Assembly (NCBI GenBank): GCA_050013255.1
Contig: JBEKFP010000001.1
Coordinates: 1,056,001-1,120,000 of the forward strand
Direction of reading: 5' to 3'
DNA length: 64,000 bases
From: Candidatus Bathyarchaeia archaeon
GTDB taxonomy: Archaea; Thermoproteota; Bathyarchaeia; 40CM-2-53-6
Position 1 is the first letter of the stretch. Each line of letters opens with the position of its first letter. Below the pieces are notes generated by a model. It was not told the origin of the DNA, ran no database searches, and saw only the letters and a program-made list of their open reading frames with translations. Of this stretch, positions 5,203 to 31,427 are shown one piece after another. The position numbers and the translations under genes are program-made.

Positions 5203-5464
5203 CTGCTGTTCATCACCAAGAAACTGAGTAACAAAGTCAGAATGAACCGCGCGCTCTAACAATCATAGCCGATAAATTCTCTTGCTCGTGCGATTAGTCC
5301 ATTACTCATCGGAACAGTGAGCCTCGATTATAGAATAGTGTATCTCTTTACTGGGAGCGAGGTAAAGCAACCCGAAGCGCTGACGTACCTCGTAACCTTG
5401 CTCTCAAATGCTGTCTTGCAAAGAACTCCAAGACGCTTTAGTGAACGTATGTGCCAAGAACCAT

Positions 5465-21099: not shown

Positions 21100-22476
21100 A
21101 TGACTCTGCGCGAAATCGCGAAAAAGATCAGAAGCGGTGAGACATCTCCATCAGAGATAGTGAGGCTGCTATTGGAGCAGATCCGGCGTACGGATGACAA
21201 GTTACAAGCATACATAACCGTGTGTGAGGAGAGCTCTCTGAAACTCGCCGAGGCTGCGGAGCTTCAGCTAAAGGCAGGCCATGACCTCGGAGTTCTGCAT
21301 GGAATCCCGGTCTCGATCAAGGATCTGTACGAGACCGAAGGAATTCGCACAACATGCGGCTCCAGACTAATGCAAGACTATGTCCCGAAGAAGGACTCTA
21401 CAGTCGTCGCGCGCTTGAAATCGAAAGGTGCGATAGTTCTAGGGAAACTGAACACGCACGAATTCGCCTTAGGAGCAATGAGTCCTCCAACGAAAAATCC
21501 TTGGGACCTCGGTCGCATCCCAGGAGGTTCAAGCGGCGGTTCTGCGGCAGCTTTGGCTATGGGGTCTGCAATCGCAACGACCGGCTCTGACACGGGTGGA
21601 TCCATCAGAATCCCGGCGTCATTCTGTGGAGTTGTCGGGTTGAAGCCAACTTACGGACGTGTTAGTCGCGCGGGCATATTTCCGGAAAGTTGGTCCCTTG
21701 ATCATGCAGGTCCGCTAACCAAGAGACTTGAGGATGCCGCCTTGCTTCTCAGGATAATGGCTGGAAGAGACGAGTTGGATCCAACTTCCTCAGACCTCCC
21801 GGTACCGGATTATGTCCAAGAACTGGAAACCAATATCGCAGGCCTAAGAGTAGGCGTGCCGACAAACCACTTCTTCGAACACTGCGATTGTGAGATTGCA
21901 AAGGCAGTTAATGCGGCGGTCGAAGTGCTGGAAGGATTGGGTTGCACTAAAGTAGAGTTCGAATTCCCAAGCATTTCCGAGATCATGGCCGCCTACACAA
22001 CAATCGACTTGTGCGAGGCAAGCGCCTATCACGAACGGGAAATCGAACAAAGGGCCGCCGACTTTCAACCGGATGTACGTCTCCTATTGGAACAAGGCCT
22101 TCTCATTCCTGCAAGCTATTACATCCAAGCTCAGAGAGTCAGAGCAATGCTTTTCGCGAAAGTGATGAGCCTGTTCGATCACCTGGATGTGATTGTCACG
22201 CCTTCCGTACCTATTGTATCGCCCCAGGTGAGTCAGACCATCGTAAGAATCGATGATTATGAGGAAAGCGTAGACAGTGCTGCAGTCCGCTACCTCGCGC
22301 CCTTCAACCTAACCGGATTGCCTGCGCTCTCGATTCCCTGTGGCTTCTCGAGCAAAGGCCTACCAATCGGAATGCAGATAGCGGGAAGGGCCTATGATGA
22401 AAGCACGATACTAAGACTCGGCCATGAATATGAAAATGCAACAGAATGGCACATGAGGCTACCTGAGACATCATAA
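21100..22476 (+). CDS. Amidase signature family enzyme
   Basis: SIKD, PGGSSGGSA, GSDTGGSIRIPASFCG. Confidence 0.93.
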   Translation: MTLREIAKKIRSGETSPSEIVRLLLEQIRRTDDKLQAYITVCEESSLKLAEAAELQLKAGHDLGVLHGIPVSIKDLYETEGIRTTCGSRLMQDYVPKKDSTVVARLKSKGAIVLGKLNTHEFALGAMSPPTKNPWDLGRIPGGSSGGSAAALAMGSAIATTGSDTGGSIRIPASFCGVVGLKPTYGRVSRAGIFPESWSLDHAGPLTKRLEDAALLLRIMAGRDELDPTSSDLPVPDYVQELETNIAGLRVGVPTNHFFEHCDCEIAKAVNAAVEVLEGLGCTKVEFEFPSISEIMAAYTTIDLCEASAYHEREIEQRAADFQPDVRLLLEQGLLIPASYYIQAQRVRAMLFAKVMSLFDHLDVIVTPSVPIVSPQVSQTIVRIDDYEESVDSAAVRYLAPFNLTGLPALSIPCGFSSKGLPIGMQIAGRAYDESTILRLGHEYENATEWHMRLPETS

Positions 22477-22616
22477 CCGAAGGGTAATGTCAACTTCATT
22501 CTCGAGTGTAATCGGATTGAACGGACAAAATTCGTCATTCTTCGACAATCGAAAATCCCGCTTGCCGTTCGGCGTGGCAGCCAAAGTATTAAATACTGTT
22601 CGATAAGACCAACAGC

Positions 22617-24233
22617 GTGAGCGTTTTGTCATCTAATCAAAGTTCAAAGAAAGGTGACTTGTATCTTCGACGCGCTAGCGGCCTGGTGAGAACTGCAGGT
22701 CCATGGTCTGGTCTCGCATTCAATGTCATTTGGACTGGAAATGCGGTCGGAATTATCGCGGCCTTCATATTGAACTCATACGTCTTCGTGGCACCTGGCC
22801 AGAACATAGTTGGGCTAATACTTGTTGCCACATTGCTTTCCACCCTGAATGCGGCAACTTACATGTTCTTCTCAATGGCCATGCCACGGTCTGGTGGCGA
22901 CTACCACTACATCGGGAGAACCCTACATCCAGCGCTAGGTTTCATGAGTAGTGTCAACTGGGCGTTGTGGCTTCCCCTCGTGTTGGGCTTCGGTGGCTCA
23001 GCATTTGTTCCAATCGCACTCAACTCAATCGTGAAATCTTGGGGAGTAGCCACCAACAACCCCGTTGCAATTGCTTTTGCAGATACATTGCTTCAACAGA
23101 ATTTCGTATTTCTGACCGGAGCGATTCTGATAATCTTCTTTACGGCGATTACGATTCTGGGCACGAAAGTCTACTTTACCATACAAAACATTTCCTTCAT
23201 GTTCATGATATTGGCTGTCTTAATCACAGTTGCCGCCTTTGTAGTGAATACTCCTAGTACCTTCGCTGCGGCAATAGACCGTTCACTCGGCCAGGGTACC
23301 TATAGCTCAACTATACAGACATTTCAAACGAACTACCCATCAATCAAGCGTCCACCGGTGATCGCGATTTTGAGCGGCATCGCCCTGTGGGCCGGAATTA
23401 ACACTTGGGCGATGGGCACTTCATTGATTGCCGGCGAGGTAAAGGAGGAGAGAAAACTGAAAACGTGGATGATCGCCAACATCTTGGGCACATTGGTCAC
23501 TGGCGGAATAATGGCTTTAACCGCTTATCTCTACTTGTCATCAGTAGGAGAGAAATTCGTCTACGCAATGTCTTACCTGAGCGGTTCCGCTGGCTACAAG
23601 CTGGTATTTCCGCCCTACTACTCCTCATTTATTCCATTTGCGTTCCCGAATGTCATAGTGTTCATCATATTCGGCCTAGGCTTCTTCCTTGGTGGCATCT
23701 TCTTTTTCCCACAGAACCAGATACTCGCAAGCAGAGTCATGCTTGCTTGGTCCTTCGACCGCCTCATGCCTGGACAACTTGGACAAGTAGACAAGAGGTT
23801 CCACGCGCCGATCGTGGCGACCGCGATCTGCGGCATTATCGCGCTCATCTCGCTGTGGGTCTACGTCTATACATCATACCTCGGCTTCTTCTCGCAGCTC
23901 TTCGCCGTCGCATTCAGTTTCCTTCTAACATCAATCGCGGCCATCGTCTTCCCATTCCGCAGGAAAGCTATGTTCGAATCATCCTCAGCCAACATCAAAA
24001 TCGCAGGCCTTCCTCTAATGAGCCTTGTCGGACTCGCAAACGCAATCTTTATGGCCATATTCATTTACCAAAACTGGACAGACAGCACGCTAGGCTCGAA
24101 CAACCCTGTATCACTCGCACTTATTCTCGGAATACTAGTTGTTTCCTTCGCCCTGTTCTTCATAATACGGGCGATCAGGAAACGCCAAGGCATCGACATA
24201 GATGCGCTATTCCGAGAAATCCCGCCTGAGTGA
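22617..24233 (+). CDS. APC superfamily amino-acid permease
   Basis: LRRASGLVR, AMPRSGGDY..R.L.P..GF, SR.MLAWSFDR, multiple TM helices, EIPPE C-terminus. Confidence 0.92.
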   Translation: MSVLSSNQSSKKGDLYLRRASGLVRTAGPWSGLAFNVIWTGNAVGIIAAFILNSYVFVAPGQNIVGLILVATLLSTLNAATYMFFSMAMPRSGGDYHYIGRTLHPALGFMSSVNWALWLPLVLGFGGSAFVPIALNSIVKSWGVATNNPVAIAFADTLLQQNFVFLTGAILIIFFTAITILGTKVYFTIQNISFMFMILAVLITVAAFVVNTPSTFAAAIDRSLGQGTYSSTIQTFQTNYPSIKRPPVIAILSGIALWAGINTWAMGTSLIAGEVKEERKLKTWMIANILGTLVTGGIMALTAYLYLSSVGEKFVYAMSYLSGSAGYKLVFPPYYSSFIPFAFPNVIVFIIFGLGFFLGGIFFFPQNQILASRVMLAWSFDRLMPGQLGQVDKRFHAPIVATAICGIIALISLWVYVYTSYLGFFSQLFAVAFSFLLTSIAAIVFPFRRKAMFESSSANIKIAGLPLMSLVGLANAIFMAIFIYQNWTDSTLGSNNPVSLALILGILVVSFALFFIIRAIRKRQGIDIDALFREIPPE

Positions 24234-24407
24234 CAGCTACTTCTTCCTCCACTTTTTCTCAAACCCGATTTTTACGGGACGATCGAAAACAGAACACGAT
24301 TGTGTGACGAAAAGGTGATTAGGGCACTGCAAATTCACGTCACGCAAGTAGGCTTTAGAGGAGTCTCATTCGACCTGCAATCTGCAACCACGAGAGACGT
24401 GAGGAGC

Positions 24408-25190
24408 TTGTCCGAGAAGGCGACCAACGACGACAAAGACCGAACATTCCTTGATGAGACTTCCAAGATTATCGAAGCGGCAGAGAATAATGATGTGCTC
24501 CTAAGGGTCATGGGCTCTATTGCGTTCAAGCTCCATTGCCCACAGTTCTCTTACATGAGCGACCAGATGAATCGAAAGCTCACTGATATCGACTTCGCCT
24601 CGTACAGTTCTGAGATGAATAGCGTGGATCAGCTTCTGCGAGACCTTGATTACACCACCCAATCCTACGTCCAGCTTGCAGCAGCGTCTGTGGGAAGGTC
24701 GATCTACTGGAAAAAAGACAATTCAGTCCACATCGATGTGTTTTGGGATAAGCTGCAGATGAATCATACCGTCAACTTCCGTGGTAGACTGGAAACGGAT
24801 GAGCCGACAATCCCGCTCCCAGAACTCCTACAAGAGAAGTTCCAGATAGTGAAGATCAACTGGAAGGACATAAAAGATGTCGTTATGCTCCTTCGCGAGC
24901 ATGATGTAGCAGAGAAAGATTCAGGACGCGAAGCCGTCGACCTCTCGATCATTAGCAAAGTGTTGTCGAATGACTGGGGGTACTACTACACGTTCACCCA
25001 AAACATTAAAGAAACTCAAACCCGAATCCAAGAACTCACAATGCTCTCTGAAAACGATAAGGCGACCGTAACTGCTAGGTTAACTAGGGTGCTTGAGACG
25101 ATCGAGAGCGCACGAAAGAGCGCCAAATGGACTTTGAGGTCTAAGATTGGAACCAAGCGTATCTGGTATACCGAGGTGGGTGAAGTATAA
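24408..25190 (+). CDS. Pol-beta-superfamily nucleotidyltransferase-like protein
   Basis: LRVMGS.A...R..TDIDF, third Asp in HIDVF, KD..D helix; TTG start 24408 after GTGAGGAG. Confidence 0.7.
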   Translation: MSEKATNDDKDRTFLDETSKIIEAAENNDVLLRVMGSIAFKLHCPQFSYMSDQMNRKLTDIDFASYSSEMNSVDQLLRDLDYTTQSYVQLAAASVGRSIYWKKDNSVHIDVFWDKLQMNHTVNFRGRLETDEPTIPLPELLQEKFQIVKINWKDIKDVVMLLREHDVAEKDSGREAVDLSIISKVLSNDWGYYYTFTQNIKETQTRIQELTMLSENDKATVTARLTRVLETIESARKSAKWTLRSKIGTKRIWYTEVGEV

Positions 25191-26140
25191 TGGCTTCAAC
25201 CAAGATTTTCTTCACCTCAGATGTGCATGGATCTGACCTTGTCTTCAAGAAATTTCTAAACGCGGGCAAAGCGTACAAGGCAAGCTACCTCATTCTTGGA
25301 GGAGATATTACAGGCAAAGGCCTTGTGCTCGTCTCGAAGGACGCAAATGGCTACAAGGCGAATTTCCTTGGAAAGGACGTCATGGCGACGAACGAAGCTG
25401 ATTTTGAGCGACTTAAAGGGCAAATCGTGAAGAACGGTTTCTACGTATACGTGGGCGACCCGAGCACCATAAGTGAAATGAGAGAGTCCACTGACAAGTC
25501 GGAAAAAGTTCTGATGGAATGCATGAAGGAAAGGCTCGAGTTTTGGCTGAACCTTGCAGAAGAACGGCTAAAGGGAACTGGCATTGAGTGTTACATCTCC
25601 CCCGGCAATGACGATGGGTACGAAATCGATTCAATCCTGAACTCGAGCAGCATCGTTGTCAATCCAGAGGAAAAAGTAGTCTCGCTGGCGGGGGATTACG
25701 AGATGATAACAATGGGGAAAGTCAACATGACCCCTTGGAAATGCCCACGCGACGTGACTGAGGAAGAGGTTGAGAACACGCTCGAGCACATGGTATCTCA
25801 GGTCCATGATTTTGGCAAGGCTATCTTCAACCTCCACGTACCACCCTATGACACTCTGCTCGATATCGCACCAGAACTTGACAGCGAACTAAGAGTTGTG
25901 AACCGCGGGGGGCAACCGAGTATGGTGCATGTGGGTTCTGCTTCAGTTAGGCGAGCAATAGAGAAGTATCAACCGATGCTCGGGTTACATGGGCACATAC
26001 ATGAATCAAAAGGAGTCGAGAAGATCGGGCAGTCCCTCTGTCTCAACCCCGGAAGCGAATACCAGGAAGGAATCCTGAGGGGCGCACTAATCACTCTCGA
26101 TTCGGGCAAGCTAAAGAACTATCTGCTGACATCGGCATAG
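25190..26140 (+). CDS. Calcineurin-like metallophosphoesterase
   Basis: SDVHG, GGDI, PGNDD, HVPP, HGHIHE, NPGS; TAATG overlap with the upstream gene. Confidence 0.9.
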   Translation: MASTKIFFTSDVHGSDLVFKKFLNAGKAYKASYLILGGDITGKGLVLVSKDANGYKANFLGKDVMATNEADFERLKGQIVKNGFYVYVGDPSTISEMRESTDKSEKVLMECMKERLEFWLNLAEERLKGTGIECYISPGNDDGYEIDSILNSSSIVVNPEEKVVSLAGDYEMITMGKVNMTPWKCPRDVTEEEVENTLEHMVSQVHDFGKAIFNLHVPPYDTLLDIAPELDSELRVVNRGGQPSMVHVGSASVRRAIEKYQPMLGLHGHIHESKGVEKIGQSLCLNPGSEYQEGILRGALITLDSGKLKNYLLTSA

Positions 26141-26186: not shown

Positions 26187-26456
26187 TTGCCTTCATTAGG
26201 TCATAAGAAAATGAACGTTGCAGGTCAACGGCTTGGAGTTAGACGTTTATCGGTGGTAGACACCCATACCGTGGGAGAACCCACGAGTGTTGTGACCGGA
26301 TTTCCATTGGTTCGCGGAGGGTCCCTGACAGAAATCAAGAATGACATGCAGGAAAACCATTATTGGTTGAGGCGCTTCATCCTTCACGGAAGTGTGCTCT
26401 TCGACAGCACAGAGCCCCACTTGTCCCAGTGTCGATCTTTTTCGATTCTGATATAG
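26187..26456 (+). pseudogene. Proline racemase family N-terminal remnant
   Basis: SVVDTHTVGEPTSVVTGFP...KNDMQENHYWLRRFIL, similar to the N-terminus of 26661-27653; homology ends about 26387. Confidence 0.8.
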
Positions 26457-26660: not shown

Positions 26661-27653
26661 TCATTCAAGCAAGAAGCCGTTTACTAACGGGTCATTCTCA
26701 TCAAAAACGAGTTTGTTGAAACCTGTGATGTAGGCAGAGCCCGTGATTTCTGGAACAATCGCGTCATAATCACCTACCCTCGTTTCGCTGATAATTCTGC
26801 CTTTGAACTTAGTTCGGAGTATGCTTTCATGAACGAATGCGTCCCCGACTCGAAGCTCCCCTTCTGAATGAAGCAACGCCATTTTAGCACAGGTTCCTGT
26901 TCCGCATGGTGATCGGTCCAATTGCCCTCGTCCGAAAACAACAGCATTTTGTGCATGCGCGTCCTTGCTCTTAGGAGGGCCCGCGAATTCTACGAGTTCC
27001 ACCCGATTGATGTGTGGAAGGTTTGGATGGACGACCTTCTCTTGAGCATTCACGATCTTCTTGATTTCTATGCCCAAATCAATTAGAACGGTTTTGTTCC
27101 AAGGCTCCAAATCAACACCAAGTTCCTTTGCCTTCACATGCGCGAAAAAGTCTCCGCCGAAGAGCAGATCCACACTGATCAATTTGCGTCCCAGTGTTAC
27201 GTTTACGGTTCGAAGTCTGAATGCGGGAACGTTTTCGAAACTTACTGTTTGGACGCCGTTCCCTTGGTACCGCACTCTTGTCTTCACGACACCTGCTGAA
27301 GTGTCAATCAAGATTTCCTCTTTGGGTTCAATGATTTTCGTTTGGACAGCATAGGTGACAACACCTATCAGGCCATGCCCGCACATGTCCAGATAGCCTC
27401 CATTGTGCATCCAAAAGGCCCCAAGATCGCACCCTTTCCGTTTTGGAGGGCAAAGAATGGCTCCGAACATGTCGCTGTGCCCCCTTGGTTCTTCCAGTAC
27501 GAAGCGCCTAAACCAATCATGATTTGTTTGCATGTCGTCCTTGAGTTGCGCAATCGTTTCGCCACGGAGCGGGAAATCCGTCACGATCCGGGTAGGTTCC
27601 CCAGCAGTGTGCGTATCCACGACAGAATATTCGCGTTGGGACAAAAGCATCAA
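26661..27653 (-). CDS. Proline racemase (Cys/Cys type; possibly also hydroxyproline epimerase)
   Basis: EPRGHSDMFG, MCGH, DRSPCGTG. Confidence 0.92.
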   Translation of the reverse strand: MMLLSQREYSVVDTHTAGEPTRIVTDFPLRGETIAQLKDDMQTNHDWFRRFVLEEPRGHSDMFGAILCPPKRKGCDLGAFWMHNGGYLDMCGHGLIGVVTYAVQTKIIEPKEEILIDTSAGVVKTRVRYQGNGVQTVSFENVPAFRLRTVNVTLGRKLISVDLLFGGDFFAHVKAKELGVDLEPWNKTVLIDLGIEIKKIVNAQEKVVHPNLPHINRVELVEFAGPPKSKDAHAQNAVVFGRGQLDRSPCGTGTCAKMALLHSEGELRVGDAFVHESILRTKFKGRIISETRVGDYDAIVPEITGSAYITGFNKLVFDENDPLVNGFLLE

Positions 27654-29714: not shown

Positions 29715-30152
29715 TTGACGAGAACACATGAAGCATTGAAGAGTGACCATCTCAATTTGCTGATTAATGGCACCTGGGTTGAGTCTCAATCTGAGGAGCT
29801 CCTCCCTGTGATGGATCCGGGGAGGGGAGAGGAGATTTGCAAAGTTCCCCTCGCTTTGGGAGAAGAGATTGACGCCGCCGCTATTTCATCTCAGAATGCG
29901 TTCGAGAAGTGGAGACTGGTTCCCCTTACAGAACGCATGCAATACTTGTTCAAGATGAAATATGTTTTCGAAGAGCGCTTCGAAGAACTGGCTCGAATCA
30001 ACACTCGGAATCATGGAAAGACGATTAAAGAGAGCAGAGGCGACGTAAGGCGCACCATTGAGAACGTTGAAGCTGCGATCGCCGCGGGTTACACTCTACT
30101 GAAGGGTGAACATCTAGATCAGATCGCTCAGGACATCGACGAAGGAACCGTG
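29715..30152 (+). pseudogene. Methylmalonate-semialdehyde/aldehyde dehydrogenase N-terminal remnant
   Basis: INGTWVES..V.DP..GE..AF.KW..R...HGKT..ESRGDVRRTIENVE..GE.LDQIAQDID, then loss of homology; catalytic domain absent. Confidence 0.8.
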
Positions 30153-30229
30153 AACACCAACATCAAGCATGAATTTCGGTCCATTGCAACGAGGCGGGAT
30201 GTCTTAGATCGGCAAGAGTTGGATTTCAG

Positions 30230-31312
30230 TCAAACTGTATACCGTACGAACTCGTTCTCGCAGGGATTACCATGGGATATCCAGGCCTCCCTTTTCTCAG
30301 GGATGTATATCATGCCATCAAGAGTTCTGCTATGATGGGCCTTGGGTTTCGCAGGGTTTACGTGCGCGCATATCATGTTAGGTCTGTTTGCATGATCTCT
30401 GAGGAACTCTTGAAAGGTGTTCAGGTTGAGTTTCCCTTCGTTACTTTGTAGGAGTTCCAACATCCTATCGCATCTTGCTTCGCTGTTCACGCGAGAATCA
30501 CCACTCTTTGGATCAGTGAAACCCTCGGTTCCGTAAACGTAATGATTAGCGTGATGTAGGAAAACGTTGGACCTCGTTGCCGTTACTTTGAGCGGATTAG
30601 CCTCAACGTCAACTATGCCCTTATTGTCCCCAAGCATGAAGTTCAGAGCGTATGCTCTGTCGGCCCTTTCGATTGCGGCGACTGCCCCATCAAGGTCCTT
30701 CTGGTTAAGCACCTCTCTAACAATACAAAGCATAGGAACTCCCACCTTCGTCTTCTCGAAACCTAACGCGTTAATGCACACGCTCAGTCCGCTAGAGTTC
30801 ATGCCCATCATGGCCGGAGCGCCAGCGTAGCTATAGATCAACGCGTCGGGGCCATCTTTCTGCACATACTTGGTGAGCGTAACGCAGTCACCGTCTAGCC
30901 ATGGATCTATTCCTTCATCGTTGTTCTGCCCAACGTATGTTAATCCATCTGAAGTGGCCTTGTCTCTTGCGGCAAAAGACGTACACGCCTTGCTCAGTTT
31001 CGGGTAAAAGACCTCGTTAAACGCGGCAACCAGTAAGACTTCATTAGGTTGAATATCGGCTCCATCAGCCGTGCCCCTAATTTCTTCAGCAATTTCCTCC
31101 GAGTAGTCTCGGATAGGTCTCTCATACTGTGAAGCTTCTCGCAGGGCGTCTTCTCTGGAAGTTTGCAGATAGCGAACATAGAAGTCGTAGTGCGAATCAA
31201 TTAAACGCCTAATTAGAGGCTTGTAGCGAACGCCGTACGCGTACCCTCTCTCAAAAGCGCTTCCCCGCGCCTCGAGTACGTCCAACGTGTTGACGCTCAG
31301 TAGTTTTGCCAT
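30230..31312 (-). CDS. C45 family Ntn-hydrolase/acyltransferase
   Basis: GSAFERG..YG, ACTSFA nucleophile Cys, GQNND, GMNSSGL..N, HANHY, GNPC. Confidence 0.88.
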   Translation of the reverse strand: MAKLLSVNTLDVLEARGSAFERGYAYGVRYKPLIRRLIDSHYDFYVRYLQTSREDALREASQYERPIRDYSEEIAEEIRGTADGADIQPNEVLLVAAFNEVFYPKLSKACTSFAARDKATSDGLTYVGQNNDEGIDPWLDGDCVTLTKYVQKDGPDALIYSYAGAPAMMGMNSSGLSVCINALGFEKTKVGVPMLCIVREVLNQKDLDGAVAAIERADRAYALNFMLGDNKGIVDVEANPLKVTATRSNVFLHHANHYVYGTEGFTDPKSGDSRVNSEARCDRMLELLQSNEGKLNLNTFQEFLRDHANRPNMICAHVNPAKPKAHHSRTLDGMIYIPEKREAWISHGNPCENEFVRYTV

Positions 31313-31427
31313 GACAACCAGACACGACCTGACCTCTTGGGACCCTATACGCATTTACACCGACTATCGGCAGCGACACTATGCTGCTTGCCCTTCATCT
31401 GCTTTCCTAGCGGGGTCGTCGATCCGG

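Follow-up and report, generated by a model that had tools for sequence, protein, structure and literature searches.

The window considered here is a stretch of 64,000 nucleotides from the genome of a Candidatus Bathyarchaeia archaeon (GenBank assembly GCA_050013255.1, contig JBEKFP010000001.1, positions 1,056,001 to 1,120,000), and our subject is a set of three genes within it, at 22617-26140, that encode a permease, a nucleotidyltransferase-fold protein (NT), and a metallophosphoesterase (MPE). An earlier note, made from the sequence alone, had described this trio as a candidate undescribed module, and the three open reading frames (ORFs) do lie head to tail on the + strand at the positions it gave. 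The first gene (22617..24233, GTG start) encodes an SLC7/CAT-like permease of the APC superfamily, 538 amino acids (aa) long; it is followed by the NT, of about 260 aa (24408..25190), and by a calcineurin-like MPE of 316 aa (25190..26140). The last two genes share a base: the NT stop codon, TAA at 25188-25190, and the MPE start codon, ATG at 25190-25192, together make up the TAATG (25188..25192) that had been pointed out, an overlap that implies translational coupling and hence a fixed ratio of NT to MPE. The NT frame is open from 24300 to 25190 and offers alternative starts at GTG 24399 and TTG 24300; because the homologs are about 260 aa long, the TTG at 24408 that had been proposed is the most likely start, and GTG 24399 remains an alternative.

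These three genes travel together well beyond this locus. Searches with the three proteins (tblastn) find approximately eight trios in this 2.46 Mb assembly, with all gene orders and orientations represented, and a few genes that stand alone. The latter include two NT genes that have neither permease nor MPE nearby (C1:138249-139004 and C3:271547-272308), one of them with an in-frame TAG. Across species-representative genomes, tblastn confirmed 481 relatives of the NT, drawn from Bathyarchaeia, Nitrososphaeria, Hadesarchaea, Chloroflexota, Thermoleophilia, Alphaproteobacteria, Methylomirabilota, and others. Neighborhoods were counted for the best 80 of the NT loci, many of which are cut by contig ends; within 6 kb of the NT, the permease is present at 56 of these 80 loci, the MPE at 58, and both at 54. 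The closest ortholog locus of the copy studied here, in a Bathyarchaeota metagenome-assembled genome (L017:4257-5844), has the same permease-NT-MPE order and an NT that is 65% identical; its permease match changes frame at about 5436-5440, through either a frameshift or an error of assembly.

The phyletic pattern points the same way. Of 121 Bathyarchaeia genomes, sampled evenly, 31 carry the NT, 31 the MPE, and 30 a permease of the subfamily; the three sets are essentially one, with all three genes in 28 genomes and none of them in 88. Gene totals over this sample are close to 1:1:1 (93 permeases, 87 NT, and 89 MPE genes), as are the counts of permease, NT, and MPE within single genomes, for example 10/9/9, 12/14/14, 7/6/6, 5/5/5, and 4/4/4. 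The few mismatches in copy number come from incomplete genomes or a pseudogene. Five Anaerolineales genomes that seemed to have the NT without the MPE do have both, in equal copy number and on one contig, at a distance of 6-8 kb. A distant but complete trio, with an NT only 25% identical, is found on a plasmid of Halobellus limi (NZ_CP031312.1, 386259-389795), where the genes are annotated as “metallophosphoesterase,” “hypothetical protein,” and “APC family permease.” Over 45 complete trios the mean identity is 0.46 for the NT, 0.44 for the MPE, and 0.29 for the permease, and the three proteins co-diverge (Mantel r 0.79-0.87, values that are inflated by genome relatedness).

Co-inheritance of the trio is thus obligate, with parity of copy numbers. 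The copies within one genome, the loci across taxa, the phyletic pattern, and the exceptions that dissolve on inspection are four independent lines which together take the linkage beyond chance, so that the neighborhood survey proposed in the earlier note has ended with conservation both within a genome and across phyla. That note had also named an already characterized ortholog pair as something that would overturn its proposal, and none turned up; full-text literature searches brought up nothing published on the trio, on PF14907-type enzymes beside permeases, or on the function of TT1561 or aq_1956, two structural relatives of the MPE discussed below. With the linkage conserved, no characterized ortholog pair, and a nucleotidyltransferase fold in the middle protein (see the next paragraph), the description of the trio as an undescribed module stands.

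All of the NT motifs that had been named from the sequence (GS, DxD, a third Asp, and KDxxD) are present, and all are invariant in an alignment of 41 sequences. Numbered from 24408, they are G36-S37, D60-x-D62 (in DIDFA), D110 (in DVF), and K153-D154-x-x-D157, the last being part of an EK..Q...KDxxD motif of the nucleotide-binding type. The same alignment contains unusually many invariant residues beyond the catalytic center, including R56, R97, R127, K144, Q146, W190, G191, T195, N199, W241, R244, G248, and W253. The AlphaFold2 model is confident (predicted local distance difference test, pLDDT, 91; predicted template modeling score, pTM, 0.89). Foldseek recovers the expected families with weak E-values (~3e-3 at best), and since it gave no more than this, VIA-align was needed to place the fold: the best match is the antibiotic nucleotidyltransferase ANT(2'')-Ia (4xje; Z 12.8, root-mean-square deviation 3.2, 154 residues aligned), followed by MenT1 (8an4; Z 12.0), 5uvd (Z 11.5), LnuA (4wh5; Z 10.6), JHP933 (Z 10.2), TglT (Z 10.1), and MenT4 (Z 9.6). 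The model therefore confirms, as a prediction, both the nucleotidyltransferase fold and an intact catalytic center, and the enzyme is presumably active.

One part of the original description has to be corrected. The NT had been treated as a “minimal” (MNT-type) nucleotidyltransferase that lacks its usual HEPN or AbiEi partner, which is the wrong class; it is a two-domain protein of about 260 aa from the branch that holds ANT, MenT, and AbiEii. Within that branch the NT is a new family; its match to Pfam NTP_transf_5 (PF14907; 18.5 bits, E 0.0017) falls below the gathering cut-off of 31.2 and every homolog that carries a database name is a “hypothetical protein.” A precomputed PF14907 label is attached to a minority of the homologs, NCBIfam has no family that matches, and a profile of the NT gave no meaningful match among PDB chain sequences. 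With ANT(2'')-Ia/LnuA and MenT/AbiEii (DUF1814), its closest folds (Z 10-12.8), the NT shares the G[GS], DxD, and third-Asp motifs, as well as a helical C-terminal domain that carries an EK...[KR]DxxD-type motif. It differs from them in being only 12-17% identical, in having neither an antitoxin partner nor a resistance context, and in fully conserved motifs of its own, namely DWG, PKS-x-x-W-K-x-R, and KWY.

The NT family is large, with 949 clusters (at 50% identity) among homologs with E<1e-30 in the representative library. Of the 150 best of these, one has 396 aa and all others are approximately 250-300 aa long; searches with the single NT and with the 41-sequence alignment brought up no other longer or fused proteins, NT-MPE fusions included, which is weak evidence of their absence. 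The longer protein, P0161, is metagenomic and joins an IclR/MarR-type winged-helix domain (about residues 18-70) to a complete NT domain (144-395). As a single case, this fusion of a winged helix-turn-helix to an NT could be an artefact of gene calling.

The MPE was said to be intact, and every motif of its dinuclear metal site is indeed kept: D11-x-H13, G38-D39, G139-N140-D141-D142, H216, and G268-H269-x-H271 are invariant in the MPE alignment. Motif III reads GNDD, with the His of the usual GNH[DE] replaced. The protein scores 27.1 bits against Pfam Metallophos (cut-off 21.5), and its model is very confident (pLDDT 95.8). By VIA-align the model is closest to aq_1956 (2YVT; Z 24.5), TT1561 (1UF3; Z 23.5), and MPPED2 (Z 21.0), then to Mre11 (about Z 20), Rv0805 (Z 18.5), GpdQ (Z 17.6), and also 5'-nucleotidases. 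Its 50 best rows are phosphodiesterases, nucleases, and nucleotidases; PPP-type protein Ser/Thr phosphatases (PP1, PP2B, lambda phosphatase) are not among them, an absence from a list that does not exclude that family. The MPE looks like a phosphodiesterase on this structural evidence, because its nearest relatives of known activity (MPPED2, Rv0805, and Mre11) cleave nucleotide phosphodiesters. The metal site is the same as in these three and in aq_1956 and TT1561. The MPE belongs in one group with the latter two, which are themselves uncharacterized. It differs from its structural relatives in having GNDD in place of GNH[DE] and in being 60-90 aa longer by virtue of an inserted cap (about residues 44-128), in which identity falls to 0.29 as against 0.46-0.58 for the MPE core.

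The permease matches PF13520 (AA_permease_2) with 70.2 bits (2e-19, cut-off 27), and its profile matches GkApcT (5.6e-24) and CAT1 (1.9e-20); its hydropathy plot has 12 peaks. It thus belongs by profile to the same fold family as the SLC7/CAT-type transporters (GkApcT, human CAT1, LAT1), with low identity in the core, and it shares with them a similar basic motif before the first transmembrane helix (TM1). What stands out are its two cytoplasmic ends. The N-terminal motif LYLRRASGLVR (residues 15-25, 22659..22691) follows the family pattern F-x-R-[KRE]-A-[ST]-G-L-x-R, with R18, S21, G22, and L23 invariant in 30 sequences. At the exact C-terminus, residues 522-538 (24180..24230) form a tail of the pattern ...G-[IV]-D-x(3-4)-[FY]-x-E-[IV]-P-P-[ELIV], in which G525 and P536 are invariant in the same 30 sequences; in this copy it ends in ...G-I-D-x4-F-x-E-I-P-P-E. 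Mean pairwise identity is 0.70 in the N-terminal motif and 0.47 in the tail, compared with 0.26 in the membrane core. The tail is a hallmark of the subfamily: every long permease of this genome that bears the motifs has it, Halobellus limi retains it together with the N-terminal motif, and no solved APC structure aligns with it. Being subfamily-specific and not covered by solved APC structures, it is the better candidate, of the two ends, for a docking site specific to this unit.

The amino-acid or amine catabolic surroundings described in the earlier note are borne out by a same-strand amidase and by D-Ser-dehydratase-like, proline-racemase-like, and class III aminotransferase genes. The amidase-signature enzyme (21100..22476, + strand; Pfam Amidase 1e-120) lies directly upstream of the permease and is context, outside the constant trio. 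Between the two, an A/T-rich TATA-like box, tattaaata (22587..22595, + strand), was read by eye 22-30 nt 5' of the permease GTG; with low confidence, it is a possible archaeal promoter that would give the permease a leaderless or short-leader transcript.

Two fragments lie further 3' in the window. Just beyond the MPE, an 89 aa ORF (26187-26456, + strand) matches only positions 1-45 of the proline-racemase profile, and 200 bp beyond it is the full-length proline-racemase-like gene (26661-27653, - strand); the short ORF appears to be what is left of such a gene after a duplication or rearrangement. Similarly, a 206 aa ORF (29715-30335, + strand) corresponds to no more than positions 1-115 of the aldehyde dehydrogenase profile, which has 461, and has its 3' end overlapped by an opposite-strand gene of peptidase-C45/AAT-like type (30230-31354); the ORF is probably a truncated pseudogene.

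Around other trios the catabolic partners change. Other Bathyarchaeia have class III aminotransferases, luciferase-like oxygenases, and MttB with a corrinoid protein; Alphaproteobacteria have a glutamine-synthetase-like enzyme and an alpha/beta hydrolase; and Chloroflexia have an FGGY kinase and GalT. The Halobellus limi trio adjoins an IclR regulator, an iron alcohol dehydrogenase, and an aldehyde dehydrogenase. In Anaerolineales, the trio belongs to a large DeoR-controlled island with two choline-kinase-like kinases, DMGDH-like oxidases, aldolases, and an aminotransferase. The Chloroflexota island (e.g., L048, L095, L073, and L039) also holds a transaldolase or class II aldolase, a class I/II aminotransferase, and MttB, and its substrate may be a choline-type or Amadori-type compound. 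A stand-alone protein with four CBS domains directly follows the NT in 22 Chloroflexota loci; in Anaerolineales the NT always has it as its next gene. The shared theme of these neighborhoods is organic nitrogen compounds, with differing chemistry. Several of the gene sets (MttB with its corrinoid protein, aminotransferases, and alcohol with aldehyde dehydrogenase) look like pathways that need no nucleotidyl step. Since the catabolic neighbors are chemically unrelated, the NT and MPE go with the permease and not with any one chemistry.

No hidden small partner, such as a PII-like protein, emerged, in that no conserved ORF of 35-90 aa recurs in the trios, and eight Chloroflexota loci gave no Rfam matches that would indicate a riboswitch. 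Eight Anaerolineales loci (L039:5780-6000, and L045, L048, L068, L076, L081, L090, and L095) share a conserved intergenic stretch between DeoR and the NT. It contains an ordinary TTGCAA...TATAAT promoter 5' of the NT, preceded by TGAAGGAA repeats, and these repeats are likely the DeoR operator.

Among known systems, GlnD/GlnE with PII-GlnK and AmtB offers a working analogy only, in which a writer of the Pol-beta superfamily and a hydrolytic eraser control the assimilation or uptake of nitrogen compounds. The trio is not a member of that system, because every defining domain is absent: Pfam and NCBIfam find no GlnD or GlnE domains, no HD or second nucleotidyltransferase eraser, and no ACT sensor. 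Moreover, no PII or glutamine synthetase gene recurs near trios, a glutamine-synthetase-like gene being confined to alphaproteobacterial loci; the candidate eraser is a metallophosphoesterase; and an APC permease accompanies the two enzymes in a 1:1:1 ratio. The trio also differs from Lic-type choline activation (LicB, LicA, and LicC), in that the NT has a Pol-beta fold and not the GlmU-like fold of LicC, and choline-kinase-like genes stand beside it only in Chloroflexota. We know of no characterized APC transporter that travels with such a pair of enzymes.

What, then, might the two enzymes do? The earlier note had left the choice between a writer/eraser pair and a catabolic route that activates and then hydrolyzes. 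The evidence leans to a writer/eraser pair that serves the permease, although sequence data do not decide between the two, and we offer this nucleotidylylation switch as our tentative preference, at a little less than an even chance. Under it, the trio would be an uptake unit complete in itself: the permease of each copy would bring in an organic nitrogen compound of its own, which in this copy is probably what the upstream amidase acts on, and the NT and MPE would serve the permease and leave the imported compound unprocessed. The NT would use a nucleoside triphosphate (NTP) to place a nucleoside monophosphate (NMP) on a hydroxyl at the cytoplasmic face of the permease, or on a factor bound there; the MPE, acting as a phosphodiesterase, would take the NMP off again; and through this mark the state of the cell would set transport activity. 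In other words, we infer an acceptor that is the permease itself or a factor attached to it, reversal of the mark by the MPE, and control of uptake as the outcome. Several features favor such a pair: the 1:1:1 coupling to one permease subfamily while catabolic partners change, enzymes that are more conserved than the cargo-binding core, conserved cytoplasmic tails, the affinities of the MPE with nucleotide phosphodiesterases, the preserved catalytic carboxylates of the NT, and the translational coupling of NT and MPE.

There are serious points on the other side. No protein is among the known acceptors in the NT's branch, which are small molecules for ANT and Lnu and tRNA 3' ends for MenT. Tails shared among permeases would invite cross-talk among nine enzyme pairs in one genome, which substrate-specific enzymes would fit better. 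The MPE cap, usually the element that sets specificity, is the most variable part of that protein, and the kinases found in many contexts (ChoK/APH and FGGY) hint at phospho-ester chemistry on the substrate. In addition, two permeases of this genome carry the tail motif but have no NT or MPE nearby (C3:19665-21200 and C3:41792-43513); like the solo NT genes, they could be copies in decay or have their partners supplied in trans. Finally, when the permease is aligned with human CAT1 and GkApcT, its N-terminal motif falls on “REESRLSR” of the former and on the pre-TM1 segment of the latter. The N-terminal RKASGL was downgraded as a unique modification site because of this alignment, and the motif may be, at least in part, an inner-gate element common to the wider family and perhaps not a modification site.

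With counter-evidence of this weight, chemistry at the level of the substrate stays a strong rival to the permease-directed switch, and we would put it as unlikely but well worth keeping in mind. Here the NT would act on the imported compound, or on some common derivative of it, by nucleotidylylating a hydroxyl or a phosphate, and the MPE would cleave the resulting phosphodiester or pyrophosphate, so that the compound is activated, trapped, or phosphorylated in two steps inside the cell. The best structural match of the NT, ANT(2'')-Ia, is after all a small-molecule enzyme, as is LnuA; the MPE has weak sequence similarity to LpxH, an NDP-sugar pyrophosphatase; a variable cap is to be expected if substrates differ; one enzyme pair per permease suits substrate-specific enzymes; and the ChoK/APH- and FGGY-type kinases recur beside bacterial trios. 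However, the adjoining pathways are chemically diverse, and some of the likely substrates, among them betaines and simple amines, lack a hydroxyl that could be modified. Conservation is higher in the NT and MPE than in the permease core and extends to many invariant residues beyond the catalytic center, and NTP-dependent addition followed by hydrolysis would be futile unless the intermediate were consumed, for which no conserved consumer gene is at hand. A local nucleotide signal, made by the NT and degraded by the MPE in the way that phosphodiesterases oppose cyclases or alarmone synthetases, seems less probable still. It would report substrate at the permease to readers such as the CBS-pair protein of Chloroflexota, and such four-CBS proteins elsewhere bind adenine nucleotides. 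The MPE is closest, among enzymes of known activity, to the nucleotide phosphodiesterases MPPED2 and Rv0805, the NT fold also aligns, at lower Z (7-8), to RelA/SpoT-type synthetases, and one NT homolog is fused to a winged-helix DNA-binding domain. Yet a diffusible signal does not need a synthase and a hydrolase for each permease, and parity is kept at up to 14 copies per genome; the CBS partner is absent from archaeal and alphaproteobacterial trios; and the best matches of the NT transfer to an acceptor hydroxyl and are neither cyclases nor pyrophosphokinases.

Two further readings are more distant. The trio could be a nucleotide-powered transporter, in which the NT nucleotidylylates the permease tail in each transport cycle or gating step and the MPE resets it. 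We consider this a long shot; it would explain the 1:1:1 parity and why the permease is almost never without its enzymes, since an optional regulator would be lost more often. Most improbable of all is a toxin-antitoxin-like pair that hitch-hikes beside permeases, with a MenT/AbiEii-like nucleotidyltransferase that blocks tRNA 3' ends and an MPE that trims the nucleotides off. MenT1, TglT, and MenT4 are indeed among the best structural matches of the NT (Z 9.6-12.0), and many copies per genome are typical of such expansions. Against this, the adjacent genes are the permease and the MPE and not an AbiEi/MenA-type partner, and the defense models of PADLOC have no match for the NT (nor for the permease, and for the MPE only a partial, weak match to PDC-S10 at the C-terminus). 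The NT and MPE are often split by the permease, on opposite strands, or 6-8 kb apart, an arrangement that such a pair would not tolerate, and strict parity with one permease subfamily is unexpected for hitch-hikers.

It is worth recalling that APC/SLC7-type permeases are a major route of amino-acid and amine uptake in all domains of life, and to our knowledge none has its own nucleotidyltransferase and phosphodiesterase. The trio is large, widespread, and uncharacterized, with up to 14 copies per genome, and it occurs in Bathyarchaeia, Chloroflexota, Actinomycetota, Alphaproteobacteria, and one haloarchaeon. The last of these, Halobellus limi, is a cultured host that can be used for experiments. 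In the uncultured archaea the trio gives a handle on approximately 1% of the genes, and its place beside pathways for quaternary amines, amides, and amino compounds bears on carbon and nitrogen turnover in peat, soil, and sediment. Were the nucleotide-powered transporter true, a secondary-carrier fold would have been turned into an NTP-coupled pump in energy-poor anaerobes. If the enzymes act on the cargo, they would provide a new entry step of organic-nitrogen catabolism; and if, as we tentatively favor, they write and erase a nucleotide mark on the permease, that mark would be a new kind of transporter control.

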